From contig CAVUJW010000013.1 in the NCBI GenBank assembly GCA_963741915.1, positions 203,791 to 267,790 on the forward strand: a DNA stretch of 64,000 nucleotides. Reading direction: 5' to 3'. A program made the position numbers and the translations under genes. The notes under the pieces are model-generated. The model made no database searches, was not told the DNA's origin, and saw only the letters and a list, made by a program, of their open reading frames with translations. This DNA is from an uncultured Chloroflexia bacterium (GTDB taxonomy: Bacteria > Chloroflexota > Limnocylindria > Limnocylindrales > CSP1-4). The stretch's first letter is position 1, and every line of letters begins with the position of its first letter. Shown one piece after another: positions 6,245 through 57,878 of this stretch.

Positions 6245-6877
6245 TCAGCCGCCGGCTGGCGCGCCGAGCCGCGTGTCCACCCGCGGCGGATGGGCGGTCT
6301 CCCAGGCATCGATCGCCTCGCCGCGCGCCAGGACGTAGCCGATCTCGTCGGTGCCCGCGAGCAGCATCGCCTTGGCGAAGGGATCGATCTCGAAGTCGAT
6401 CGTCGAGCCGTCCGGCAGCAGGATGCCCTGCTCGGCCAGGTCGACCCGCAGCTGGGCGTCGGGGTCCACGGCGACGAGGTCGAACAGGCGGCGGTGCGTG
6501 TCCGGGTCCACGACGATCGGGAGCACGCTGTTCTTGAGCGCGTTGCTCCGGAAGATGTCCGCGAACGAGGTGGACAGGATCGCCTCGATGCCCCACGCGC
6601 GGAGCGCCCAGGGTGCGTGCTCGCGCGAGCTCCCGGTGCCGAAGTTGTCCCCCGCGAGCAGGATCCGGCGGCCCGCCATGCCCGGCCGGTCGAGCACGAA
6701 TGGCGGGTCCTTGGGGGAGCCGTCCTCCTCGAACCGCCAGTCGCGGAACAGCGCGTCGGCAAGCCCAGCCTTGTCGGTGACCTTGAGGTAGCGGGCCGGC
6801 ACGACCTGGTCCGTGTCCACGTTCTCGGCGGCGAGCGGCACGACCTTGGAGCTGAAGCTGCGGAACCCCTCGGCCAT
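6245..6877 (-). CDS. leuD: 3-isopropylmalate dehydratase small subunit
   Basis: 210 aa, MAEGFRSFSSKVVPLAAENVDTDQVVPARYLK...GDNFGTGSSREHAPWAL. It sits immediately downstream of leuC with a 1-nt gap. Confidence 0.95.
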   Translation of the reverse strand: MAEGFRSFSSKVVPLAAENVDTDQVVPARYLKVTDKAGLADALFRDWRFEEDGSPKDPPFVLDRPGMAGRRILLAGDNFGTGSSREHAPWALRAWGIEAILSTSFADIFRSNALKNSVLPIVVDPDTHRRLFDLVAVDPDAQLRVDLAEQGILLPDGSTIDFEIDPFAKAMLLAGTDEIGYVLARGEAIDAWETAHPPRVDTRLGAPAGG

Positions 6878-8321: not shown

Positions 8322-8585
8322 GCGGCGGATCTGCCCTGCTCATGCGCTGCGCTGCGGTGCGGGCGACAAGGGTACCAGCGACCCCGACGCGCACGTCGCA
8401 GCCGATCCGGGGCGCGGGCCGTGCCCGGCGCTCCACGCGACCCCGGGTGAGCGGTTAGTACCTTTGGGGTGTGGTTGGCTGGGTACCGATGGGGTACAAC
8501 GCCCCTCGACGGGGTGCCCGCATCGTCGGGGCCCCTCCGGCGATCCCCTGGTCGTCGGTCGCTCGGAGACCTGGATGATCGAGGG

Positions 8586-11201
8586 ATGACCCCGCTCGAG
8601 ACCGTCGCGAATGCGCCCGACCAGCCGGACCATGCCCGGAGCGAGGCCGTGCTGCTCCGCCTCCGCCGTGTCCCGGCGGCGGCCCGGGTGGCGCTGTTCA
8701 GCGTGGCGCTCACGGCCCTGGCCTGGCTGCTGTTCGTCGGATACCTGGCGCACCAGCCTGCGCATCCCACCCCGGTCAGCGTCCCGTGGTACCTGATCGC
8801 GCTGGGCTTCCTCGTCGCGGAGCTCAAGGTGGTCGACGTGCAGTTCCGGCGCGAGAAGCACTCGTTCTCGCTGGGCGACGTGCCGGTCGTGCTCGGGTTC
8901 TTCCTGCTGACCCCGGGCGACTACTTCCTGGCCATGCTCTCGGGCACCGGCGCTGCGCTGCTGCTGGGCCGCCAGCCGTTGCTCAAGGTCGCCTTCAACC
9001 TGGCCGATTTCAGCTTCGTCTCGGCGGCGGCGATGACCGTGCTCTACGGCGTGCACGCCCCGCTCGGTGCGCCGGACGTCCCCGACTGGGCGGCCGCGTT
9101 CGCCGCCACGGGCGCGGCGGCGGTGCTCAGCGCGTTCTCGATCGCCGCCGTGATCTCCATGTCCGGCGGCGCGCCGCAGTTCCAGAAGCTGCCCGAGATG
9201 ATCCAGTTCGGCGGCCTGGTCGCCGTGGCCAACACCAGCTTCGCGCTGCTCGCGGTCTCGACGCTGTGGGTCGAGCCGAAGCTGCTGGCCCTGATGGTGG
9301 TGCCCCTGGTCGTGGTGTTCCTCGCCTACCGTGCCTACGCGTCCGAGCGCGAGAAGCACCAGCGCCTGGAGCTGCTCTACCAGTCGAGCCGGATCCTCCA
9401 GCACTCGCCCGAGCTGGATTCCGCCCTGGCGGCGCTGCTCGAGCACACGCGCGAGATGCTGCGTGCCGAGCGCGCGGAGGTCCTGCTGTGGCCGCGCGAC
9501 GGGGGTGAGGAGGGCCTGCTCACCTCGTCCCTGCCCGATGGGCCGTCGCTGACCATGGAGCCCGTCGCGATCGCCGGCGTGCACGAGCTGCACCGCAGGA
9601 TCGGCCGTGAGCGCCGCGCGTTCCAGTACGACGTGCCCCCGCGCGTCCACGACCCGATCCGGCACGCGATGGCCGTGCCGCTGCTCGGGGAGTCGGGCCT
9701 GATCGGCTCGATGATCGTCGCCAACCGGCTGACCGAGGGCACCACCTTTGGCCACGACGACCTGCGGCTGCTCGAGACGTTGGCCAACCAGGCGGCCGTC
9801 GCCCTCGAGAACGGGCAGCTGGAGCAGTCGCTCAGCGAGCTCTCGCGGCTCAAGGAGGAGCTCCGGTTCCAGGCGTACCACGATCCGCTCACGGGTCTCG
9901 CCAACCGGAGCCTGCTCACGGAGCGGGTCGATGCCGCGCTCGCGGTGGATCGGGGGCCGGAGCTCCCGGTGGTGCTGTTCATCGACCTCGACAACTTCAA
10001 GGACGTCAACGACACCCTCGGCCACGCGGCCGGCGACCGGTTGCTCACGGCGGTCGCGGAGCGGGTCCGGACCTGCATCCGCACCCAGGACCTGGCGGCC
10101 CGGCTGGGCGGCGACGAGTTCGCGATCCTGCTGCTCGACGATCCGCGCCTGGCCAGCGCGCTGTCGGTTGCCACGCGCGTGATCGAGGCCCTGGCCGTGA
10201 CGTTCCCGATCCAGGGCCACGAGCTCAAGGTCTCGGCCAGCATCGGGATCGCCGCCAGCCAGGGCGGGATCGAAGGCGCGGACGACCTGCTGCGCAACGC
10301 GGACGTGGCGATGTACACCGCGAAGCAGGCCGGCAAGAACCGGTTCTCCGTGTTCGAGCCGACCATGCACGCGGCGATCGTGGCGCGCCATGCGACCTCG
10401 ACCGAGCTGTCGCGCGGCATCTCGGGCGGCGAGATCGACGTCTTCTACCAGCCGCTGATCCGGCTGGCGTCCGGAGCCCCGTACGGCGCCGAGGCGCTCG
10501 CGCGCTGGCGTCATCCGGTCCGGGGGATCGTGGCGCCCGACGAGTTCATCCCGCTCGCGGAGGAGAGCGGGGCCATCCTGGAGCTCGGTCGCGCCGTCCT
10601 GTTCGAGGCATGCCGCGAGGCATCGACCTGGCGCTCGGCGGGCGGCCCGCTGGCGGTGACCGTCAACCTCTCGGCCGCCCAGCTCGGTCACGACGACTTC
10701 ATTCGCGACCTCGTCGACATCCTAAGGGCCACCGGGCTGCCACCGTCCCGGCTCGTGCTCGAGATGACCGAGACCGCGATGTTCCACGACACCCAGACGA
10801 CGATCGCGCGGCTGATCGCCCTGCGCGACCTGGGGGTGCGGGTCGCGATCGATGACTTCGGCACCGGCTACTCGTCGCTGGGCTACCTCCGACGGTTCCC
10901 GGTCGACATCCTCAAGATCGCCCGGGAGTTCGTGGCGGATGCCGACGCGGGGCAGGACGGCTGGGCGTTCGCGCACTCGATCATCGCCCTCGGCCGAACC
11001 CTCGGCCTGCAGATCGTGGCCGAAGGCATCGAGGCGCCGGGGCAGCTCGACCAGCTGCGCGAGATGGGCTGCGAGCTGGGACAGGGGTTCCTGTTCGCGC
11101 ATCCCATGCCCGGCGAGCAGATCGCGGCCCTGTTCGCGCCGCCGCCCCGCACTGCCGCCCGGGCCGCGCAGCGGTCGCTGCCCGCGGTGCGGCCGGGCTG
11201 A
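8586..11201 (+). CDS. membrane-anchored GAF-GGDEF-EAL protein (c-di-GMP synthase/phosphodiesterase)
   Basis: The ORF is open from 8469; the ATG at 8586 (MTPLETV...) is the likelier start. It has a multi-TM N-terminus and a GAF-like segment. The GGDEF domain has an intact GGDEF and an RxxD I-site (RTQD, 5 aa upstream). The EAL domain has EALARW, DDFGTGYSSL, EGIE and QGF. Confidence 0.85.
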   Translation: MTPLETVANAPDQPDHARSEAVLLRLRRVPAAARVALFSVALTALAWLLFVGYLAHQPAHPTPVSVPWYLIALGFLVAELKVVDVQFRREKHSFSLGDVPVVLGFFLLTPGDYFLAMLSGTGAALLLGRQPLLKVAFNLADFSFVSAAAMTVLYGVHAPLGAPDVPDWAAAFAATGAAAVLSAFSIAAVISMSGGAPQFQKLPEMIQFGGLVAVANTSFALLAVSTLWVEPKLLALMVVPLVVVFLAYRAYASEREKHQRLELLYQSSRILQHSPELDSALAALLEHTREMLRAERAEVLLWPRDGGEEGLLTSSLPDGPSLTMEPVAIAGVHELHRRIGRERRAFQYDVPPRVHDPIRHAMAVPLLGESGLIGSMIVANRLTEGTTFGHDDLRLLETLANQAAVALENGQLEQSLSELSRLKEELRFQAYHDPLTGLANRSLLTERVDAALAVDRGPELPVVLFIDLDNFKDVNDTLGHAAGDRLLTAVAERVRTCIRTQDLAARLGGDEFAILLLDDPRLASALSVATRVIEALAVTFPIQGHELKVSASIGIAASQGGIEGADDLLRNADVAMYTAKQAGKNRFSVFEPTMHAAIVARHATSTELSRGISGGEIDVFYQPLIRLASGAPYGAEALARWRHPVRGIVAPDEFIPLAEESGAILELGRAVLFEACREASTWRSAGGPLAVTVNLSAAQLGHDDFIRDLVDILRATGLPPSRLVLEMTETAMFHDTQTTIARLIALRDLGVRVAIDDFGTGYSSLGYLRRFPVDILKIAREFVADADAGQDGWAFAHSIIALGRTLGLQIVAEGIEAPGQLDQLREMGCELGQGFLFAHPMPGEQIAALFAPPPRTAARAAQRSLPAVRPG

Positions 11202-11746
11202 TGTTCATCCTGTACGCCGTCGCAGTCGGGCTGCTCGCCGGGTTCCTCGCGGGTGGCGGGATCAGCGGTCTGGCCAGGCTGCGCATCCGGTGGGCGCCGG
11301 TGATCGTCCTCGGGCTGGTCAGCCAGGTGATCCTGTTCAGCGGCCCGGTCGCCGAGCGGGTTGGATCCCTCGGCCCGCCGCTGTACGTCGGCTCCACCCT
11401 GCTGGTCCTCGCTGCGGTCATCCGCAACCGTGCCATTCCCGGCATCCCGGTGGTGATCGCCGGCGCCGTGTGCAATCTCGCCGCGGTCGTCGGCAACGGC
11501 GGGTACATGCCGGCGTCGGCGGCGGCGCTCGAGGCCTCGGGCAAGACCGCGCCGGTCGTCTACTCCAACAGCTTGCTGGCGAGCGATCCGGCGCTGTGGC
11601 CGCTGACCGACATCTTCGCGCTGCCGGCGTGGATGCCGCTCGCGAACGTGTTCAGCGTGGGCGACGTGCTGATCGGGATCGGGATCGCGCTGATCGCGGT
11701 GCTCGCGATGCGCGGGTCGGCCGCCGCCCCCGAGGTCGCCGGCTGA
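11201..11746 (+). CDS. DUF5317-like small membrane protein
   Basis: 181 aa with ~5 TM segments and the motif NLAAVVGNGGYMPAS, resembling the NGGxMP signature of DUF5317. Its ATG overlaps the stop of the GGDEF-EAL gene (TGATG), implying co-translation. Confidence 0.6.
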   Translation: MFILYAVAVGLLAGFLAGGGISGLARLRIRWAPVIVLGLVSQVILFSGPVAERVGSLGPPLYVGSTLLVLAAVIRNRAIPGIPVVIAGAVCNLAAVVGNGGYMPASAAALEASGKTAPVVYSNSLLASDPALWPLTDIFALPAWMPLANVFSVGDVLIGIGIALIAVLAMRGSAAAPEVAG

Positions 11747-11881
11747 TCGTCGCCAGCGACCGGTGCTGGCCCGCACTGGCCCGCACCGGCCCGAACCGGG
11801 ACGTCCGGGGCAGGACCTATGGGCCATTGGTAAGGGGGGGCGCGGCGATTAGGGTCTGGCTCGAGGGATCAACCCTCCACC

Positions 11882-11986
11882 GGGACAACCGTCCAGGGCA
11901 AACCCGTCGTGAGGCGGGGACGCAAAGCCAGGGATCTTCGTTGGAAGGCCGCCCGGCTGCCGGAGTCCAGGGGTATCGAGTTCCCA
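11882..11986 (+). promoter_or_regulatory. c-di-GMP-I (GEMM-I) riboswitch aptamer, copy 1
   Basis: CAGGGCAAACCCGUCGUGAGGCGGGGACGCAAAGCCAGGG...CCGGAGUCCAGGGGUAUCGAG aligns with the V. cholerae Vc2 core CAGGGCAAACCAUUCGAAAGAGUGGGACGCAAAGCCUCCGG...GGUAGCGGGGUUACCGA. P2 is CCCGUC/GGCGGG closed by a GNRA loop (GUGA). P1 is GGGA (11882-85) with UCCC (11982-85). Confidence 0.8.
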
Positions 11987-12003
11987 GCAAGGGAGTCAGC
12001 ATC

Positions 12004-12090
12004 GTGAAGGCGAACCTGGCGCGCTTCACCTGGGCCGTCGCGCTGCTCGCGTCGATGGCCCTCACCACCGGCGCATGGATGCGCTGGTAG
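12004..12090 (+). CDS. 28-aa hydrophobic micro-ORF downstream of riboswitch 1
   Basis: GTG at 12004, 8 nt after the SD-like GGGAG (11991-95): MKANLARFTWAVALLASMALTTGAWMRW*. It resembles a signal peptide or single TM segment. No convincing coding continues after the TAG in any frame. Confidence 0.35.
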   Translation: MKANLARFTWAVALLASMALTTGAWMRW

Positions 12091-12226
12091 CGCCCGTGTG
12101 CACCGCCGGCGTGGCCTCGGCCCGTCGCGGGCAGGCGGCCGCTGCATCGTCGGATGGGCCCGGTCCCGGCATCGAGTCCTGGCACCGCTGGTAGGTCCTG
12201 ACCGCTCGGGATCCCAAATGAGCGAC

Positions 12227-12252
12227 GAGACCGCCGGAGGCCCGGTGGTCTC
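12227..12252 (+). terminator. candidate stem-loop terminator after the micro-ORF
   Basis: GAGACCGCCGG-AGGC-CCGGUGGUCUC (11-bp stem with one G-U pair), followed by the moderately U-rich GUCGCGUUCGGUUGUCCGGUUCGUUCG. Confidence 0.3.
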
Positions 12253-12315
12253 GTCGCGTTCGGTTGTCCGGTTCGTTCGCGGCGGGCACCGGCCGGAACG
12301 ATGCGGTGGGGGTGG

Positions 12316-12345
12316 TTGCGCCCTCGCGGGATGTACGGCTAGACT
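12316..12345 (+). promoter_or_regulatory. candidate promoter for the ilvB leader (TTGCGC - 18 nt - TAGACT)
   Basis: TTGCGC at 12316-21 and TAGACT at 12340-45, 24 nt upstream of the ATG at 12370. This is pattern match only. Confidence 0.25.
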
Positions 12346-12369
12346 GCGCAAACCCGCCGCCGGCGGGGC

Positions 12370-12603
12370 ATGGGAGTCAGTCGCTTGGGCTTCTTCTCGG
12401 ATCGCCAGCGCAGCAAGGTCGCCGTCGTCGTGACGGCCGACGGTCGCCGCGTGAGCGTTCCGCTGCGCGACCTCCAGCCCCGTGACGGATCCCTGCTCGG
12501 CCTCCTTCACTCGCTGCTTGCCGGTCTCGAGGACCTTCTCGGGCTCCTCATTACCGGCTCCCGGCGGGAGAACCGAGGAACGCGGAGGGATGAGCGCCGC
12601 TGA
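12370..12603 (+). CDS. 77-aa Leu/Val-rich leader-type ORF upstream of ilvB
   Basis: MGVSRLGFFSDRQRSKVAVVVTADGRRVSVPLRDLQPRDGSLLGLLHSLLAGLEDLLGLLITGSRRENRGTRRDERR, GC3 ~80%. It has 11 Leu within 21 residues plus a VAVVV run. The stop lies 25 nt before a terminator-like hairpin. The antisense frame also has high GC3, so coding status is uncertain. Confidence 0.3.
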   Translation: MGVSRLGFFSDRQRSKVAVVVTADGRRVSVPLRDLQPRDGSLLGLLHSLLAGLEDLLGLLITGSRRENRGTRRDERR

Positions 12604-12628
12604 GGCGCCGGCCACCGAACACCGAAGG

Positions 12629-12656
12629 GACCCTCGCCGGGAGGCGGGGGTCTTTG
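12629..12656 (+). terminator. intrinsic-terminator-like hairpin (candidate ilvBNC attenuator)
   Basis: GACCCUCGCC-GGGA-GGCGGGGGUC followed by UUUG. It is a 10-bp GC stem with one G-U pair, and lies between the leader ORF stop (12603) and the ilvB start region. Confidence 0.45.
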
Positions 12657-12701
12657 CATGTCCGGGCGGTCGCGGGCTGTCGGGACGGAGGGACCACGCG
12701 A

Positions 12702-14633
12702 ATGACGATGACCAGGGGTGAGCCACCCGCCGGTCGGGCCACGCCGGCGCCCGGTACGCCCACCGGCGGCTCCGGCGGCACCGGCGGCACCGGCCGCGCC
12801 ACGCCGGCCGCGCCCGCCCGCCGCAGCCACGTGCCGGGCGAAGGGTCGGCGACCGCGGCCGCGGTCGAGCAGGCACGACGGGACATGCTCCACGAGGTGC
12901 GGCCGCGCAAGCGCACCCGGATCGGCGCCGACGCGCTGATGGAGGCGCTCATCCGCCAGGGCGCCGACACGCTGTTCAGCTACCCGGGCGGGGTCATCCT
13001 CCCGATCTACGACATCCTGGGCGACTACCCGGAGATCCGGCACGTGCTGGTCCGGCACGAGCAGGGCGGCGGTCACGCGGCCGACGGGTATGCCCGCGCC
13101 AGCGGCAAGGTCGGCGTGTGCATGGGCACCAGCGGGCCGGGTGCGACCAACCTGGTGACGGCGCTGGCGACCGCCCAGCTCGACTCGATCCCGGTCGTCG
13201 CGATCACGGGCAACGTGCCCACGGCGCTGCTCGGCAAGGACGCGTTCCAGGAGATCGACATCACCGGCATCACCCTGCCCATGACCAAGCACAACTATCT
13301 CGTCCGCGATGCCGACGACATCCCGCGGGTCGTCGCCGAGGCGTTCTACCTCGCCAGCCACGGTCGTCCCGGCCCGGTCCACATCGACATCACCAAGGAC
13401 GCCCTGCAGCAGGAGACCCGGGTCGAGCATCCCTCCCTCGACCAGATCGTCGCCGGCCTGCCGGGCTTCCGACCCACGCTGGCAGGGCATCCCCGGCAGC
13501 TGAAGCTCGCCGCCAGGGAGATCAGCGAGGCGAAGCGCCCCCTGATCCTGGCCGGCCACGGGATCCTGATCGCCGAGGCGTGGGACGAGCTTCGGGCGTT
13601 CGCCGAGAAGGCGCGGATCCCCGTGGCCTGGACGCTGCTGGGCATCGGCGCGATCGACGAGCAGCACCCGCTGGCCTACGGCTACATGGGGATGCACGGC
13701 TGGAAGCACGTGAACCGCGCGATCCAGTCGGCCGACCTGCTGATCGCGATCGGCATGCGCTTCGACGACCGGGTCACGGGCAGCGTTCGGACGTACGCTC
13801 CGTACGCCCGGATCATCCACGCCGACATCGACCCGGCGGAGATCGGCAAGAACGTCGCCGTCGAGGTGCCGATCGTGGGCGACGCGAAGCACGTGCTCGC
13901 CGGCCTGACCCGTCTGGTCCCCGCGGTGGAGCCGGCAGCCCGGGCGGAGTACCTCGAGCAGCTGGCCGAGTGGCGCGCGGAGTCCGAGGGCTCGTCGTGG
14001 CACGGGTCCGGCGCGTGGCGCGATGGCCTGCTGTCGGCCGACTTCGTGATCACCCGGATCGGCGAGCTCACCGACCACGTGGCGACCTACGTCGCGGACG
14101 TCGGCCAGAACCAGATGTGGCTCGCCCGGTACGCGCGGTTCCGGCGGCCGCACAGCCACATCAGCTCGGGCGGCCTGGGGACCATGGGCTTCGCGGTCCC
14201 GGCGGCCATGGGGGCAGCTCTCGGCAACCCCGACGCCGAGACATGGGCGATCTGCGGCGACGGCGGGTTCCAGATGACGAGCCAGGAGCTGATGACGCTC
14301 GCCGCAGACCGGATCCCGGTCAAGATCGCGCTGCTCGACAACAAGAAGCTGGGGATGATCCGCCAGTGGCAGGAGATCATCTACGCGGGCAACTACCATT
14401 CCTCGCACCTGCCGGGCCCGGACTTCGTCAAGCTGGCCGACGCCTACGGCATCCCGGCCTTCCGGGCAACCTCGACCGACGATGTCGACCGGACCATCCG
14501 CGCGGCCCAGGCGGTCGACGGCCCGGCGCTCATCTGGTTCGAGATCGCCGAGGACCAGAACGTGTTCCCGATGATGCCGGCGGGCAAGGGCCTGTCCGAC
14601 CTGATCGAGACCTGGGGGGCGCCGGAGGAATGA
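12702..14633 (+). CDS. ilvB: acetolactate synthase (acetohydroxyacid synthase) large subunit
   Basis: The ORF is open from TTG 12654. The ATG at 12702 has GGAGGGA about 8 nt upstream; an alternative ATG lies at 12885. The conserved core runs from ...GADALMEALIRQGADTLFSYPGG..., with the ThDP motif GLGTMGFAVPAAMGA...GDGGFQM. ilvN follows with an ATGA overlap. Confidence 0.9.
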   Translation: MTMTRGEPPAGRATPAPGTPTGGSGGTGGTGRATPAAPARRSHVPGEGSATAAAVEQARRDMLHEVRPRKRTRIGADALMEALIRQGADTLFSYPGGVILPIYDILGDYPEIRHVLVRHEQGGGHAADGYARASGKVGVCMGTSGPGATNLVTALATAQLDSIPVVAITGNVPTALLGKDAFQEIDITGITLPMTKHNYLVRDADDIPRVVAEAFYLASHGRPGPVHIDITKDALQQETRVEHPSLDQIVAGLPGFRPTLAGHPRQLKLAAREISEAKRPLILAGHGILIAEAWDELRAFAEKARIPVAWTLLGIGAIDEQHPLAYGYMGMHGWKHVNRAIQSADLLIAIGMRFDDRVTGSVRTYAPYARIIHADIDPAEIGKNVAVEVPIVGDAKHVLAGLTRLVPAVEPAARAEYLEQLAEWRAESEGSSWHGSGAWRDGLLSADFVITRIGELTDHVATYVADVGQNQMWLARYARFRRPHSHISSGGLGTMGFAVPAAMGAALGNPDAETWAICGDGGFQMTSQELMTLAADRIPVKIALLDNKKLGMIRQWQEIIYAGNYHSSHLPGPDFVKLADAYGIPAFRATSTDDVDRTIRAAQAVDGPALIWFEIAEDQNVFPMMPAGKGLSDLIETWGAPEE

Positions 14634-48671: not shown

Positions 48672-48752
48672 CTCCTCGAAATAGCACACCCGTCGCGAGG
48701 CGGGGCCGCAAAGCCACGGGGCTCACCGAGCCAGCCGGGTTGCCGAAAGGAG
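48672..48752 (+). promoter_or_regulatory. GEMM-I-type cyclic-dinucleotide riboswitch, copy 2 (variant J1/2)
   Basis: AUAGCACACCCGUCGCGAGGCGGGGCCGCAAAGCCACGGGGCUCACCGAGCCAGCCGGGUUGCCGAAAGG. It shares the P2 CCCGUC-GNRA-GGCGGG, the GCAAAGCC core and the 3' GGGUUGCCGA with copy 1 and Vc2. The outer stem pairs CUCCU (48672-76) with AGGAG (48748-52), and AGGAG is the SD of the ATG at 48763. Confidence 0.68.
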
Positions 48753-48762
48753 CGCCCATCTC

Positions 48763-50598
48763 ATGTTCTGGGATGGCTCGCGTTGGATCGACGAGCGTGA
48801 ACACGCCGCCCAGTTGCAGTCCGCCAAGGCCCCGACCCACCATCCGCGTCGCTGGCTGACTGCCCTGGCCGTCATGGCCGGCCTGGCCATCCTGGTCATG
48901 CCGTCGCCCACTCCGGCGGCGGCCAGGTACGAGGCAGCCGCGCTGACCGCGGCGTGGGGCCCGGGCTACACGATGCGCCTGGCGCAGGAGTCCGACACGC
49001 GCGTCTCCGCCAACGGTGCCTGGCACCGCAGGGCGGCCCGCGGGTACCTCGGCGAGCGCGCGATCACGTCGTGGCAACGCGGGGCCCGGATCAGCTACAC
49101 GTTTTCGGGAACCGGGATCGCGATCATCGGTCCCACCAGCGCCCGGAGCGGCAAGGCCCGGATCTACGTGAACGGGAAGCTCGTCAAGACCGTCAACGCC
49201 CGGTCGGCGCGCTACCGGCGCCAGGTGCCCCTGTTCGTGACGAGCTGGACGACGGAGCAGACCCGGACGGTCACGATCGAGGTGGTCGGCACCACCCGCT
49301 CGGCCAAGTTCACGGTCGACGCGTTCGCCGTCAAGCGCGGCAAGCGCAAGGCTGCGCTGCTGCCGGCTCCGACGCCTGCGCCGACCTCGACGCCCGCGCC
49401 GACGCTCGCGGTCGATCCGCAGCCGACACCCCAGCCGACACCCCAGCCGACGCCGGACCCCGCCGTCGCGCCGGATCCGACCGCCGCGCCGACATCGATG
49501 CCGACGGCGACACCCGTGCCCACGGCCACCCCGTCGCCCACCGCGACGGTGACGCCCGCCCCAACGGCGACACCCGTGCCCACGGCCACCCCGACCCCCA
49601 CCCCGCGGCCGACGCCAACGCCGACGCCCCGACCCACGCCCACGCCGGTTTCGCTGACGGGCGAATTCCCCGTTCCCAGCAGCATTGACGCGACCGGCAG
49701 CACTGACGTGACCGCCGCACTTAACAACTGGATCGCCACCGTCCCTGACGGCTCGACGATCCTGTTCAAGGCGGGAGGGACGTATCGCCTCTCGCAGGGC
49801 ATCCAGATCGCGAATCGCCACGGCCTGACGTTTGCGGGCAACGGGGCGACCCTGCGCTCCACGGGGTCTGGCAGCGACCAGCTCGCCAGCCTGTTCGTGA
49901 TGGGGCACCAGTACGGCAGCTATTGGCGGTTCGGCAACACGGACATCACCGTCCGCGACTTCACGCTGCTCGGCAATGACCCGACTCCCGGCTCCTACGG
50001 TGGCGGCGAGAACCAGGCGGGCATGGAGATCGAGGGCGTGGCCGGGCTCGACGTAGCAAACGTGACCGTGCGCGCCGTCTACGGCGACGCGTTTAAGGTG
50101 GGCGTGGCATCGTCCGATGTGGTGATCCACGACTCGCACGTCGAGACGGCCGGGCGCAACGGGCTCACCGTCACGTCCGGGACCAACGTGCTCATGGAGC
50201 GGGTGAGTGTCACGCGCGCGGGCTACTGCGTGTTCGACATCGAGCCGAACCAGGCATCCGAGTCGGCGACCTCGATCACCATTCGGAACAACACGGCGGG
50301 CACCTGGGGCAACGCCTTCTTCGCCACCGAGGGGAGTCACACGGGCGCGACCATCAACGGGATCACGGTCACCGGGAACACGATCAGTGGCGCCTCGCTG
50401 CTGACGGTCGTCGACAACGGCGGCACGAGCCGGATGCGCAGCATCACGTTCAGCAACAACACGTCGACCGTGAAGGCCGCCGGACCCGTCCTGCGCTTTG
50501 CGCACATCGACGGCCTCACGGTCACCGGCAACGTCCAGCCGCTCTCGTCGGGACCCCTCGCGAGCATCACCGACAGCACCTCGGTCACCTATCCATAG
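48763..50598 (+). CDS. secreted/anchored right-handed beta-helix protein, paralog 1 (TM anchor, jelly-roll/CBM-like domain, Pro/Thr linker, pectate-lyase-fold domain)
   Basis: 611 aa. It has an N-terminal TM segment (WLTALAVMAGLAILVM), a ~140-aa beta-rich domain and a PT linker (aa 201-296). The beta-helix part begins VPSSIDATGSTDVTAALNNWIATVPDGSTILFKAGGTY with repeated xNVxVxxV/GxNG turns. Confidence 0.8.
   Translation: MFWDGSRWIDEREHAAQLQSAKAPTHHPRRWLTALAVMAGLAILVMPSPTPAAARYEAAALTAAWGPGYTMRLAQESDTRVSANGAWHRRAARGYLGERAITSWQRGARISYTFSGTGIAIIGPTSARSGKARIYVNGKLVKTVNARSARYRRQVPLFVTSWTTEQTRTVTIEVVGTTRSAKFTVDAFAVKRGKRKAALLPAPTPAPTSTPAPTLAVDPQPTPQPTPQPTPDPAVAPDPTAAPTSMPTATPVPTATPSPTATVTPAPTATPVPTATPTPTPRPTPTPTPRPTPTPVSLTGEFPVPSSIDATGSTDVTAALNNWIATVPDGSTILFKAGGTYRLSQGIQIANRHGLTFAGNGATLRSTGSGSDQLASLFVMGHQYGSYWRFGNTDITVRDFTLLGNDPTPGSYGGGENQAGMEIEGVAGLDVANVTVRAVYGDAFKVGVASSDVVIHDSHVETAGRNGLTVTSGTNVLMERVSVTRAGYCVFDIEPNQASESATSITIRNNTAGTWGNAFFATEGSHTGATINGITVTGNTISGASLLTVVDNGGTSRMRSITFSNNTSTVKAAGPVLRFAHIDGLTVTGNVQPLSSGPLASITDSTSVTYP
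49363..49650 (+). repeat. Pro/Thr-rich linker-coding low-complexity repeat
   Basis: It encodes PAPTPAPTSTPAPT...PQPTPQPTPQPTP...TATPVPTATP...PRPTPTPTPRPTPTP. It contains a perfect 30-bp direct repeat, acggcgacacccgtgcccacggccaccccg, at 49504-49533 and 49564-49593. Confidence 0.7.
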
Positions 50599-50745: not shown

Positions 50746-52527
50746 GTGATCTCTGAAGCCCGCGCCCTGCCGTGCCCTTCGCGATCCTGGCGGCTCGTCC
50801 CCCTGGTCGCCCTGGCGGTGCTCGTCGCCTTGCTGGCGACATCGTCGTTCGCGCCTCCGGTGGCCGCAGCCTCGGGCTCCAAGGTGGCCATCATCGTGGG
50901 CCCATCCGGCTCCCGGACGGCGGCGAACCGGGATCAGGGCCTTGCCGCCGCCGCCGAGGCGGCCCGCCACACGTCGAACGTGGTCACGGTGTTCAGCCCC
51001 AACGCGACGTGGACACGCGTGAAGCGGGCGATCACGGGCGCCTCGCTGGTCGTGTACATCGGTCGGGGACGCGGCTACCCCTCGCGCTACAGCTCGTCGC
51101 TGCGGACCACGGACGAGGACGGGTTCGGGCTGAACCCGGTCGCCGGGGTGAACAACCGTCGGACGAGGTTCTACGGGGAGCGCTACATCCGCAGCACGGC
51201 GCTGGCACCGAACGCCCTCGTGGTCCTGTCGCGGGCCGCCTATGCCTCGGGCTCCGGCGACCCGGGCATGGCCCAGCCCACCCTGCGGGTCGCTCGCCGG
51301 CGAGTCGACAACTACGGGGCAGGCTTCCTCGCCGCCGGCGCCTCCGTCGTGATCGCGGATTCCTCGGCGGCCCCCAGGTACTACGTCCGAGCGCTGTTCG
51401 GCGCGACGCGGACGCTCGACGCGGTGTGGCGGTCCGCGCCGTCACGCCATGGTCACGTCACCTCCTTCTCCTCGACCCGGACGCCCGGCGCGACCGGCCG
51501 TACCGACCCGGTCCACCCCCATGCCGGGTTCACGCGATCGATCGTCGGGTGGCTGTCCACGACGACCTCGATGATCCTTTCACGCGGCGTGGTCTCGTTG
51601 CCGCCCGGGAGCGGTCCGGTGGTCGCGGTCCCGTCGTCGATCGACGCGACCGGCTCGGCCGATGCGAGCGCGGCCCTCAACGCGTTCATCGGCACGGTGC
51701 CCGACGGGGCCACGATCGTGTTCAAGGCCGGGGGCGTCTACCGGATGGCCGGGGCGCTCAAGTTCGCCCATCGCCGCAACCTCACGTTCGAGGGCAACGG
51801 GTCGACCCTCAAGGGAGCCGGCGGAACCACCGAGTCCGGCTCCCTGATCTGGCTCGGCTCCTACGGCGGTGCCAACGCGGGGATCGCGATCCGCAACTTC
51901 CGGCTCACGGGCAACAGCTCCACGCCGGGCACCTACCAGGCCGGCCGCGAGGGCGCCCACGGCATCATGCTCGACGGGGGCAACGGGATCGAGATCACGA
52001 ACGTGACGATCAGCGCCGTGTGGGGCGACTGCCTCAAGCTCACCACCTGGGCGGACGGGGTCTCGTTCCATGACTCGACCTGTGCCTCCAGCGGGCGCAA
52101 CGGCATCACGATCCTGGCCGCGAGGAACGTCGCCGTGCAGCGAGTCGGATTCACCAGGACGGGCTACTGCACGTTCGACATCGAGCCGATGAGCTCCAGC
52201 CAGGGCGCAAGCAACATCCGCTTCCTGGACAACACCGCCGGCACCTGGAGCAACTCGTTCCTGTCGGCGGACGGCGCGGCCGGCTCGGTCGTCAACGGCC
52301 TGACGGTGAGCGGCAACACCGTTACCGGCAAGTCGCTGCTCACGGTCATCGACCTCGCCCGCCGCCAGAACGTCGTGTTCACCAACAACACCTCGATGGT
52401 CAAGGCCCCGGGCCCGGTCCTGCGCTTCGCGCACATCGACGGCCTGACGGTCACCGGCAACGTCCAGCCGCTCTCGTCGGGACCCCTCGCGAGCATCACC
52501 GACAGCACCTCGGTCACCTATCCCTGA
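50746..52527 (+). CDS. secreted right-handed beta-helix protein, paralog 2 (signal peptide, ~270-aa unknown N-domain, beta-helix)
   Basis: 593 aa with signal-like WRLVPLVALAVLVALLATSSFAPPVAAASG. The beta-helix part (VPSSIDATGSADASAALNAFIGTVPDGATIVFKAGGVY...) is homologous to paralogs 1 and 3. The last ~110 codons are identical to paralog 3. Confidence 0.8.
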   Translation: MISEARALPCPSRSWRLVPLVALAVLVALLATSSFAPPVAAASGSKVAIIVGPSGSRTAANRDQGLAAAAEAARHTSNVVTVFSPNATWTRVKRAITGASLVVYIGRGRGYPSRYSSSLRTTDEDGFGLNPVAGVNNRRTRFYGERYIRSTALAPNALVVLSRAAYASGSGDPGMAQPTLRVARRRVDNYGAGFLAAGASVVIADSSAAPRYYVRALFGATRTLDAVWRSAPSRHGHVTSFSSTRTPGATGRTDPVHPHAGFTRSIVGWLSTTTSMILSRGVVSLPPGSGPVVAVPSSIDATGSADASAALNAFIGTVPDGATIVFKAGGVYRMAGALKFAHRRNLTFEGNGSTLKGAGGTTESGSLIWLGSYGGANAGIAIRNFRLTGNSSTPGTYQAGREGAHGIMLDGGNGIEITNVTISAVWGDCLKLTTWADGVSFHDSTCASSGRNGITILAARNVAVQRVGFTRTGYCTFDIEPMSSSQGASNIRFLDNTAGTWSNSFLSADGAAGSVVNGLTVSGNTVTGKSLLTVIDLARRQNVVFTNNTSMVKAPGPVLRFAHIDGLTVTGNVQPLSSGPLASITDSTSVTYP

Positions 52528-56412: not shown

Positions 56413-57878
56413 CAGCGGTCGCCCCGTGCCCCGCCGCCTCGCGGTCCGCCGGCGGGTCCCGGCCGGCGCTTCGCCCGAGGGACGGCGACCGCCGCGCGCG
56501 CGCCCCGCCGCCATCCGGGCGGGCCGACGGATGCCGGCGGGCGACGCACGGCCCGGTCCGCGACGGACGACTGGAGCGCCGCGCCGAGCAGCGCCCAGTA
56601 CAGGAAGATGATCGGGTAGTCGAGGGGCGTCTGGGTGAGGCCGGCGACCGCGATCAGGATCGTGATCGGGACGAGCGCATCGCCGAACCTCGCTTTGAGC
56701 AGGGCGAACGGGGCGACCAGGAGCAGGATCAGGGCGCCGACGAGCGGTACCGAGCCCTGCGCGAAGGCCCGGAACCACGTGCTGTCCACCGCGGTCCCCA
56801 GCAGCAGCTCGGGTGAGCCCCAGGTCCCCCACGGGTAGACGGCGTTCAGGTCGATCACGGACCGCCAGTAGTCGAGCCGGCCGGCGAGGTTCGCATCGGC
56901 CTGGGGTCCTTGGGTCCAGACCGCGATCAGGGCGCTGAACCGGTCCACCAGGCCCTGCGAAGGCTCAACCGCGACGACCACGGTGATCGCCACCAGCGCG
57001 GCCACGCCGACGGAGATCGCCGTCCGGGCCGCTCCCGGCGCGCTCGTTCGGCCACGCAGGAACGCCAGAACCACGCCCACGCACGCCGCCGCGACGAGGG
57101 CGACCGAGGCTCCTCGCGACTGGCTGAGGCCCAAGGTCAGCACGGCCAGCAGCACGCCCGCCACCCGGAGGCGGGTCGTCAGGATCGTCCAGGCGAGGAT
57201 CGTGGCCACGCCGGCCCACAGGCCGAGCTCGTTGGGATTGAAGTAGAGGCCGGTTGGCCGGGCCTGGACGAAGCTGCCGTACAGCGCCTGCAGCGACAGG
57301 TCCCACGCATGGAACGGGGCGAACAGCTCCCACGCCGGCCCACGGCCGAGGTACGCGATCTGCCCCAGCGCGTAGGCGAGCTGCAGCCCGATCGCCATGG
57401 CCAGCCACGGCCGCCAGCGCCGCATCGGTGCGGCGGACGCTGCCGCTCCGAGGACCATGAACGACAGGGCCGACGTCGACCCGGTGATCGAGATCAGGGT
57501 CCGGTACGGATACCGGTTGAACATGACCCCCAGCACCGGCAGGACCAGCTCGAGCACGAGGTAGGGGGCCACGGCGATGATGAACACCGGGCTCCGCAGG
57601 AAGCGAAGCGTCGATCCGGTGCCGTAGCGGATGACTGCTACCGCGGCCGCCGCAGGCGCCCCGAAGCTCAACAGCTCCAACGCGCCCCGGCCTCCGGTCG
57701 AGACCCCCACCACGAGCCGATCGCCGAGAAGCGCGCAGAGCACGACGAACCCGATGATCAGGGCCATGCCGAGGTCGGCCTCATGGGCGGCCTCGCTCGC
57801 GATGGCGGCCTCGCTCCCGGTCGCCGTCCGGGCGCCCGGGCGCGGCCACGTCCCGCGACGAGCGACCCCCCCGCTCAC
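56412..57878 (-). CDS. O-antigen ligase/polymerase family (Wzy_C) membrane protein
   Basis: 488 aa with ~10-12 TM segments. The loop ...TGLYFNPNELGLWAGV...LGLSQSRGASVAL is typical of the Wzy_C domain. The GTG at 57878 overlaps the upstream stop (GTGA); an alternative start is at 57767. Confidence 0.8.
   Translation of the reverse strand: MSGGVARRGTWPRPGARTATGSEAAIASEAAHEADLGMALIIGFVVLCALLGDRLVVGVSTGGRGALELLSFGAPAAAAVAVIRYGTGSTLRFLRSPVFIIAVAPYLVLELVLPVLGVMFNRYPYRTLISITGSTSALSFMVLGAAASAAPMRRWRPWLAMAIGLQLAYALGQIAYLGRGPAWELFAPFHAWDLSLQALYGSFVQARPTGLYFNPNELGLWAGVATILAWTILTTRLRVAGVLLAVLTLGLSQSRGASVALVAAACVGVVLAFLRGRTSAPGAARTAISVGVAALVAITVVVAVEPSQGLVDRFSALIAVWTQGPQADANLAGRLDYWRSVIDLNAVYPWGTWGSPELLLGTAVDSTWFRAFAQGSVPLVGALILLLVAPFALLKARFGDALVPITILIAVAGLTQTPLDYPIIFLYWALLGAALQSSVADRAVRRPPASVGPPGWRRGARAAVAVPRAKRRPGPAGGPRGGGARGDR

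Follow-up and report, generated by a model that had tools for sequence, protein, structure and literature searches.

A 64,000-nucleotide stretch of an uncultured soil Chloroflexota genome (the window, GC content 72%) carries on its forward strand a class I c-di-GMP (cyclic diguanosine monophosphate) aptamer, followed by a 28-codon open reading frame (ORF1) and a second micro-ORF (ORF2). We propose, with a probability of about 0.6 for the explanation as a whole, that these elements belong to a self-contained small unit that would comprise its own promoter, a 5' hairpin, the aptamer, a pair of paralogous micro-ORFs and a hairpin resembling a terminator. Comparison of related loci gave good support to regarding it as a module conserved in the Limnocylindria (Chloroflexota), situated directly after the genes for a GAF-GGDEF-EAL protein and a DUF5317 protein. 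An earlier sequence-only reading of the same DNA had recognized the aptamer and ORF1, proposed an ON switch and offered two identities for ORF1, a riboswitch-regulated membrane micropeptide or a stump left by the loss of a secreted-protein gene.

Relatives of the unit, numbered here with the prefix L, were collected by three routes. Homologues of the upstream DUF5317 protein, which numbered 2843 at E<=1e-10, led to two syntenic contigs, L002 and L004. A degenerate DNA pattern for the ORF1 N-terminus, run against 185,579 species-representative genomes, gave 40 loci, from which 43 non-redundant units in 40 species-level genomes were obtained; all were metagenome-assembled genomes (MAGs) classified as Limnocylindria or 'uncultured Chloroflexia', save a few bins that were otherwise labelled. 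An aptamer-anchored scan of metagenomes added 123 aptamers of the same subtype. Together, the three routes gave about 100 units consisting of the aptamer and ORF1, from 40 Limnocylindria species-level genomes and from soil metagenomes.

The first micro-ORF was located as follows.

Positions 12004-12090, forward strand: micro-ORF1, encoding a predicted single-pass hydrophobic peptide of 28 residues, MKANLARFTWAVALLASMALTTGAWMRW (evidence: third-position GC content, conserved family, motif).

As the sequence-only reading had stated, GTG 12004 opens a 28-codon ORF, which ends at TAG 12088-12090. The GC content at the third codon position (GC3) was 0.97 compared with 0.57 at the second position (GC2), and the coding signature faded past 12090. 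L002 and L004 had the same aptamer and 28-codon ORF, with mostly synonymous differences and either TAA or TAG at the same site. In all of the genome-derived units (43 of 43), the ORF started with GTG, encoded 27-38 residues (mostly 29) and had the aptamer directly upstream; indeed, every ORF found by the peptide pattern was preceded by an aptamer. An ORF1-like peptide followed 61 of the 123 metagenomic aptamers, while the remainder preceded secreted proteins or other ORFs. The N-termini of the metagenomic ORF1 peptides were more divergent (VKTNLGRFTW, VKGNLVRLTW, VKDKLTRLTW and MKTVLARFML).

The motif G-x-[R/K]-W ended exactly at codon 28 in 88 of 88 ORFs, representing 86 distinct sequences, with zero indels. 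K2, A24, G25 and W28 were invariant and L5, R7, A19 and L20 almost so. The codons for A24 and G25 varied freely, A24 being encoded by GCC, GCA, GCG and GCT 38, 23, 18 and 7 times, and G25 by GGC, GGG, GGA and GGT 33, 29, 20 and 4 times. The ratio of nonsynonymous to synonymous polymorphism (pN/pS) for codons 10-28 was 0.40. Such a combination of invariant residues and freely varying codons can only come from selection on the protein.

These data bear directly on the suggestion that the 28-codon ORF is the truncated N-terminus, that is the signal peptide, of a lost secreted-protein gene. The peptide does resemble a signal peptide, and other aptamers of the same subtype, including the second copy in the window, precede secreted proteins with signal peptides. 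However, the approximately 100 homologous units all encode ORFs of 27-38 residues with the motif ending at codon 28, none of them long, and purifying selection acts on specific residues while synonymous change is free. The stop codon was found 0-10 codons past the motif and no unit ran on into a long protein. The long intact gene that would have marked ORF1 as a remnant was absent from the units recovered. The only longer forms were fusions of ORF1 and ORF2, of 36 and 58 residues. The shorter one, in L114 (near 9226, reverse strand), is a natural fusion of the ORF1 N-terminus with the ORF2 C-terminus, VKANLAHFTRALSWRAVLALSALASFALVLEAGRRW, and the longer one occurs in L156 (near 204, forward strand). 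On this comparative evidence the stump reading is effectively refuted, and it was the riboswitch-regulated membrane micropeptide that was borne out by the conservation of length and key residues with free synonymous sites. Judged by its conservation, ORF1 is a genuine conserved gene and not a remnant.

Exact look-ups showed that the peptides are called 'hypothetical protein' wherever gene callers report them. Scans with the Pfam and NCBIfam models gave no match to either peptide or to an ORF that begins at 12370. A hidden Markov model (HMM) scan of the window for additional ORF1-like or ORF2-like peptides returned just a chance match inside other genes (57671-57757).

It is highly improbable that the ORFs are untranslated and conserved as RNA structure only, or that the region is the leader of the ilvBNC operon. 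The first 26 nucleotides of ORF1 are conserved in the RNA beyond what coding needs, and ilvB lies 600 nucleotides downstream in the window. Codons 10-28, however, conserve amino acids with free third positions and no indels. With the subgroup of the window left aside, ilvB was within 1.5 kb downstream in only one of the 46 units tested. Moreover, ilvB is preceded by a leader that has its own -10 box, a Val/Leu/Ile-rich leader ORF and an attenuator hairpin, and a terminator-like hairpin separates this leader from the unit. A role of the unit as leader or attenuator of the downstream operon was rejected on the last two grounds and because the genes downstream of the unit vary among units.

The next micro-ORF and the hairpin that follows it were placed as follows.

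Positions 12096-12194, forward strand: micro-ORF2, encoding 32 residues that end in GPGIESWHRW, a divergent 'type II' form (evidence: C-terminal motif, length conservation).
Positions 12222-12257, forward strand: terminator-like hairpin, GCGACGAGACCGCCGG-AGGC-CCGGUGGUCUCGUCGC, then GUUCGGUUGU (evidence: fold, subgroup conservation).

The claim that the 28-codon ORF is the only cargo did not hold, as a paralogous ORF2 follows it directly. In the window, ORF2 runs from GTG 12096, or from an alternative ATG at 12075, to TAG 12194, the start codon being uncertain. ORF2 was present in 68 of the 86 units with enough sequence (79%), where it started 1-7 nucleotides past the ORF1 stop or overlapped it, and ended with the motif [VI][IL][EQD][AS]G[HQ]RW. 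In the common form, designated type I, ORF2 is a hydrophobic peptide of 33 residues, M..LKAQAFRV.LVLSALASSALVIEAGQRWK. The type II form has the same length and C-terminus and a non-hydrophobic, fast-evolving N-terminal half. The length of 32 residues and the ending [IV]E[SA][GW]HRW were retained in L002, L006 and L010. In the subgroup formed by the window, L002, L006, L010 and L138, the glycine of the motif was replaced by tryptophan in both ORFs. Over the whole family, the endings read G-A-[G/W]-x-R-W in ORF1 and E-[A/S]-[G/W]-[H/Q]-R-W in ORF2. Alignment of the ORF1 and type I ORF2 profiles by hhalign indicated that the two are homologous (probability 95.5%, E = 1.5e-8), and they are therefore a tandem-duplicated pair. 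The HMM built for type I ORF2 missed the copy in the window. The statement that there is no convincing coding sequence before about 12370 stood in part; a conserved ORF2 ends at 12194, though within the window it has a weak coding signature. In six loci (L015, L020, L042, L054, L086 and L146), the whole unit, with the riboswitch, ORF1 and sometimes ORF2, was tandem-duplicated behind a single DUF5317 gene.

A hairpin had been noted at 12227-12252; it is real, and its extent is larger, a perfect stem of 16 base pairs spanning 12222-12257. Counterparts were found in L002, L006, L010 and L138, with a compensatory change from C-G to U-A in L002, and similar GAGACCGCCGG...CCGGCGGUCUC hairpins occurred downstream of many other units. 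No classical U-tract was found after the hairpin at 12222-12257, and a generic hairpin-energy statistic did not distinguish the hairpins after ORF2 from the coding background at 72% GC.

The sensor upstream of these ORFs has the following position.

Positions 11877-11973, forward strand: c-di-GMP-I aptamer with an extended P1 (evidence: Rfam, P1 covariation, constrained fold, invariant core).

An Rfam covariance-model scan of the window found two aptamers of the c-di-GMP-I clan above the gathering score (curated at 59 bits for RF03167), one at 11888-11965 and a second, copy 2, at 48675-48748. The first, on the forward strand, matched RF03167 with 63.1 bits (E = 1.5e-12) over model positions 1-80 of 80. 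When 18 related loci were rescanned, all were above the gathering score, with 21 hits of 61-66.6 bits, some loci having two. The core of the aptamer was unchanged across the 43 units, and the P2 loop, GUGA in the window and thus of the GNRA type, was GUGA, GCGA or GCAA throughout. The top-scoring clan model was the GGC variant, RF03167, for every copy examined. The consensus of this model is GACGC-G-AAGCC, while both copies in the window and all of the relatives read GACGCAAAGCC, with A in place of G and a mismatch in the match line. The other canonical bases, the G that precedes the GC of P2 and the C that precedes the 3' strand of P1, were invariant in the 43 units. The positions of this G, of the A that comes first after GACGC and of this C are presumably equivalent to G20, A47 and C92 of Vc2.

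A fair description is that the sensor is a predicted c-di-GMP-binding member of the c-di-GMP-I class (GEMM-I, clan CL00126). Since the column equivalent to A47 has A and not G, filing it under the GGC variant appears unwarranted even though RF03167 scores best, the meaning of the 'GGC' label being taken from the Rfam consensus and from general background. The description of the element as a canonical c-di-GMP riboswitch was thus sound as regards the aptamer and its G, A and C bases, and needed amendment in that the best-scoring model is the variant one. That the aptamer is a GGC variant with a ligand other than c-di-GMP is unlikely; RF03167 did top the clan for all copies examined, but all copies have A where the variant consensus has G, the G and C contacts are also canonical, and the adjoining gene makes and degrades c-di-GMP.

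The subtype was also seen with other cargo. In metagenomic loci such as L050, L095, L098 and L121, and L052, L060 and L085, aptamers with the same core had J1/2 CUGAAACAG and a different recurrent frame downstream, either MVQPQ...WIRPA..R of about 35 residues or MLQVDRPDGG..RGWSLD..., which ran into a long protein. Aptamers with J1/2 CGCUCAG were upstream of secreted proteins beginning with MPYIIRPRR.

On the 5' and 3' sides of the aptamer, three further helices were located.

Positions 11863-11877, forward strand: 5' leader hairpin, GAGGG, loop AUCAA, CCCUC (evidence: the strongest signal of the anchored scan).
Positions 11978-11997, forward strand: hairpin sequestering the Shine-Dalgarno (SD) sequence, GA-g-UUCCC, loop AGCAA, GGGAG-UC (evidence: folds, covariation).
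Positions 12004-12029, forward strand: start-codon hairpin, GUGAAGGCG-AACCUGG-CGCgCUUCAC, in which the GUG start is buried (evidence: folds, compensatory changes).

Helices were assessed from duplex energies by comparing cognate with non-cognate segment pairs in 25-49 non-redundant units, and support was drawn from permutation tests, an anchored window scan (z) and shuffled controls. On these tests four helices are supported, namely a long P1 and the hairpins of the leader, the SD and the start codon. The leader hairpin (A-24 x A-12) gave the top cognate-specific complementarity in the anchored scan (z = -12.4), its stem sequences differing by lineage. P1 in the window is formed by 11877-11891 and 11961-11973, with CCG 11889-91 pairing with CGG 11961-63 and GGAC 11883-86 with GUCC 11965-68; in the constrained fold, its outer part consists of CC 11880-81 and CC 11877-78 paired with GGGG 11970-73. 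The P1 strands covaried, with a duplex energy of -10.4 kcal/mol for cognate and -7.2 kcal/mol for non-cognate pairs (permutation p<5e-5), and the inner and outer parts had z scores of -8.1 and -7.0 in the anchored scan.

The SD hairpin with the AGCAA loop, which the sequence-only reading had predicted, was upheld by the folds and by cognate-specific complementarity across the relatives (permutation p = 0.0001, z about -5). The SD GGGAG (11991-11995) pairs with UUCCC (11981-85), and the stem is extended by GA 11978-79 with UC 11996-97. The two arms switch together by lineage, as GACUC/GAGUC, CCUUC/GAAGG, UCCC/GGGA or CACCCUG/CAGGGaGUG. The further proposal that GGGA 11882-85 pairs with UUCCC to close P1, so that this anti-SD arm alternates between the SD and the 5' strand of P1, was not supported. 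P1 has its own covarying 3' strand beside the aptamer, which displaces that pairing, and the P1 5' strand showed no family-wide complementarity to the anti-SD (p = 0.77 in the cognate test, z = -0.15 against shuffles).

The start-codon hairpin, comprising nucleotides 1-26 of ORF1, has a predicted energy of -11.1 kcal/mol and scored z = -6.9 in the anchored scan, with 74% of the cells paired compared with 31-55% in slid controls. Every synonymous site in codons 2-8 was invariant in the 43 genome-derived units, and pS was 0.21 in these codons compared with 0.53 in codons 10-28. Compensatory pairs were found in distant members: pair 1-26 changed from G-C to A-U (GUG to AUG, with C26 to U) and pair 6-21 likewise from G-C to A-U (AAG to AAA, with CGC to CGU). 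In the loop (12013-12019), the C of AAC and the G of CUG were invariant in the 43 units though not required by the stem. Pairing of J1/2 GUCCAGG or P3 GCCAGG with the two CCUGG motifs in early ORF1 was considered and rejected, because units with variant J1/2 (AUCAC, AUAAA or CUCAG) keep CCUGG and because W10 is often replaced while J1/2 is unchanged.

Control would most likely be exerted at the initiation of ORF1 translation, the SD and the GUG each lying in a conserved local hairpin, and ORF2 would probably follow through translational coupling. The binding of c-di-GMP would lock the long P1, whose 3' end is about 30 nucleotides upstream of the GUG, a region that, given the footprint of the 30S subunit, would act as ribosome standby space. 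The locked P1 may remove single-stranded standby space or G-rich competitor strands; both hairpins would then stay closed, and translation would be OFF at high c-di-GMP. The lean to OFF draws on copy 2 in the same window, where the SD lies inside P1, and on the class I riboswitches that precede small proteins in C. difficile, which are OFF switches (bioRxiv 10.64898/2026.06.10.731418). When the whole of P1 was forbidden in silico, the SD opened in 37 units, closed in 10 and was unchanged in 46. We regard OFF as slightly better than an even choice.

An ON switch, in which c-di-GMP frees the SD or the start codon and the peptides are made at high c-di-GMP, is distinctly less probable. One such arrangement would have the closed P1 bring the leader near the linker or the anti-SD arm; in the bound minimum free energy fold for the window, GGCUCG (11858-63) of the leader is able to join CGAGUU (11977-82), a segment overlapping the anti-SD arm, only when P1 is closed. 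In simulation, the unpaired probability of the SD in the window was 0.45 in the bound state, with P1 enforced, compared with 0.16 unbound. The leader also paired better with the full linker in cognate pairs (permutation p = 0.004), a signal to which, however, the outer P1 extension contributes a part. Complementarity of the leader to the anti-SD was marginally above shuffles (z = -0.28, p = 0.048) but null in the cognate test (p = 0.86), as was that of the leader to the SD. Moreover, transcription may start downstream of GGCUCG, and family-wide the SD opened more often without P1 (37 compared with 10). The ON logic of the sequence-only reading was unfounded, its GGGA/UUCCC pairing being contradicted by the covarying true P1 and the complementarity between the anti-SD and the P1 strands or the leader being not beyond chance. 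The remaining probability falls to mechanisms outside this pair, such as Rho or RNA decay. No alternative helix was found, and the sequence analysis gives the polarity no more than a weak lean to OFF.

The region upstream of the leader hairpin and the two upstream genes were assigned as follows.

Positions 11827-11855, forward strand: putative promoter, -35 TTGGTA (11827-11832), 17-nucleotide spacer, -10 TAGGGT (11850-11855) (evidence: sequence reading, conserved hexamer).
Positions 11201-11746, forward strand: gene for a membrane protein with DUF5317, conserved upstream of the unit (evidence: match to Pfam PF17248, E = 1e-24).
Positions 8469-11201, forward strand: gene for a multi-pass membrane GAF-GGDEF-EAL protein, the second neighbour (evidence: Pfam GAF, GGDEF, EAL).

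A scan with the promoter consensus found nothing, TAGGGT matching three of the six positions of TATAAT. Nearly all related units had a TAnnnT hexamer, placed 7-10 nucleotides before the leader hairpin, and this conservation indicates that the unit probably has its own promoter. In 72 of 84 units (86%), the DUF5317 gene immediately preceded the unit in the same orientation, the exceptions being mostly second tandem copies, and the GAF-GGDEF-EAL gene was upstream of DUF5317 in 44 of the 55 units with enough flank. In the window, the DUF5317 start overlaps the GAF-GGDEF-EAL stop, both at 11201, as is also the case in L002, L004 and L168, which suggests that the two are co-translated.

In L003, where the neighbourhood of the DUF5317 gene is of the Tad/HerA kind, that gene is followed, with no riboswitch present, by the frame of a type I ORF2-like peptide of 33 residues, MKTILKNQAFRVLMALTTLASSALVLEAGQRWR (6678-6779), and a U-tailed terminator. 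This arrangement suggests that the functional tie of the peptides may be with DUF5317. An AlphaFold2 model of DUF5317 (predicted local distance difference test score 78) compared with PDB folds, and its profile compared with PDB sequences, gave no relative, and a literature search found nothing on DUF5317.

The leader of ilvB occupies 12339-12660 of the window as a separate element. It has a -10-like TAGACT at 12340-45, a conserved leader ORF at 12370-12603 with a run of valines (VAVVVT) and LLIT, and an attenuator hairpin at 12627-12660, GGGACCCUCGCC-GGGA-GGCGGGGGUC, then UUUGCAU, just before ilvB. The nucleotide identity across four loci was 83%. A permissive Rfam scan of 11750-12720 detected the aptamer only, the ilvB leader having no Rfam family. 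The ORF at 12370 is part of this separate leader.

At somewhat less than even odds, the peptides would serve within the membrane to partner or regulate DUF5317, the membrane-anchored GGDEF-EAL enzyme or both, a role that would give c-di-GMP a feedback output. A more specific version, which we hold to be doubtful, is that the A-G-x-R-W peptides are c-di-GMP-gated subunits of a hitherto unrecognised signalling complex in the membrane, made up of DUF5317 and the GAF-GGDEF-EAL protein, with a riboswitch that occludes a standby region beside constitutive hairpins and uses no alternative pairing.

Several observations weigh against the overall explanation offered here: 1) no mutually exclusive helix joining the aptamer to the SD or start-codon hairpins was detected, 2) the 3' strand of P1, tried as an SD mimic that competes for the anti-SD and visible as such in the clade of the window (GGAGUC), was rejected as not significant family-wide (p = 0.59; z = -0.08 against shuffles), 3) toggling the inner P1 alone in silico left the predicted accessibility of the SD and the GUG unchanged, 4) the simulated SD accessibility in the window, given above, is higher in the bound state, 5) among Rfam models the GGC variant scores best, in a comparison made without the score of the canonical model, 6) ORF2 in the window is non-hydrophobic, without a clear SD and ATG, and has weak codon periodicity and 7) the link to DUF5317 and GGDEF-EAL is drawn from gene order only, DUF5317 being without known fold or function.

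The peptides could instead be membrane-damaging in the manner of type I toxins, silenced by the structured 5' untranslated region and released under the control of c-di-GMP. They are short and hydrophobic (28-33 residues), the SD and the start codon are both buried in stable hairpins, the hok and tisB toxin mRNAs are similarly structured, and tandem duplications occur. However, the DUF5317/GGDEF-EAL neighbourhood is fixed across 40 species, neither mobile nor scattered, the peptides form a paralogous pair with a conserved polar C-terminal motif, and the window has a single copy. A toxin function is accordingly quite improbable.

The aptamer resembles the c-di-GMP-I class (RF01051, RF03167) in its full-length match, three-helix architecture, covarying P1, P2 loop of GNRA sequence and canonical contact bases. 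It differs from the class in that P1 is unusually long and bipartite and follows a conserved 5' hairpin, that two independent hairpins, at the SD and the start codon, make up the expression platform, with no detected alternative pairing with the aptamer, and that two micropeptides are the cargo. Copy 2 in the window (48675-48748) is of the same aptamer subtype (59.6 bits) but has the SD GGAG inside the 3' strand of P1, a classical OFF design, and a secreted protein of 611 residues as its cargo, whereas in copy 1 the SD hairpin is separate and the cargo is a micropeptide. The cargo in the copy 2 region (48675-50598) is right-handed beta-helix or pectate-lyase-like, and a paralog with the same C-terminal half is located at 50746-52527.

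MgrB, AcrZ, MgtS and KdpF are single-pass peptides of about 30 residues, each modulating a membrane protein whose gene lies next to its own or is regulated jointly with it. The peptides described here are alike in size and predicted topology, their partner being inferred from gene order only. They show no sequence similarity to these proteins, having no Pfam or NCBIfam match, and neither riboswitch control nor the conserved C-terminal A-G-x-R-W ending is known from those families.

The CD1980.2 family of C. difficile is the closest and sole precedent for riboswitch-controlled small membrane proteins. These are membrane-associated proteins of 58 residues, monocistronic and controlled by class I c-di-GMP riboswitches; there are 5-8 scattered copies, no homologs outside C. 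difficile were reported, and control is by premature transcription termination, with a link to sporulation (bioRxiv 10.64898/2026.06.10.731418, a June 2026 preprint). In both systems, a c-di-GMP-I riboswitch directly precedes tiny, previously unannotated membrane-associated proteins that have paralogues, and some members have no riboswitch, as in L003. The comparison being by description only, the peptides here differ in their length of 28-33 residues, bicistronic pairing, single-copy or tandem occurrence and fixed DUF5317/GGDEF-EAL neighbourhood; the hosts are Chloroflexota MAGs of non-sporulating type, and control is probably translational. What appears to be new is the A-G-x-R-W paralogous pair, the probable translational coupling, the burial of both the SD and the start codon, the fixed linkage to DUF5317/GGDEF-EAL and the occurrence in Chloroflexota.

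A literature search found nothing combining Limnocylindria with c-di-GMP, and to our knowledge c-di-GMP effectors are essentially unknown in Chloroflexota. The micropeptide family is new, and its genes go closely together with an RNA that senses c-di-GMP and with the genes for a c-di-GMP enzyme and an orphan membrane protein. Its riboswitch offers a test case of an expression platform that shows no alternative pairing. Together with the 2026 C. difficile work, the family suggests that c-di-GMP riboswitches recurrently have tiny membrane proteins as an overlooked output. The locus offers a definite point from which to approach what DUF5317 does, and if the peptides are subunits of a complex of DUF5317 with the GAF-GGDEF-EAL protein, the feedback on c-di-GMP levels would be a closed loop in Limnocylindria.

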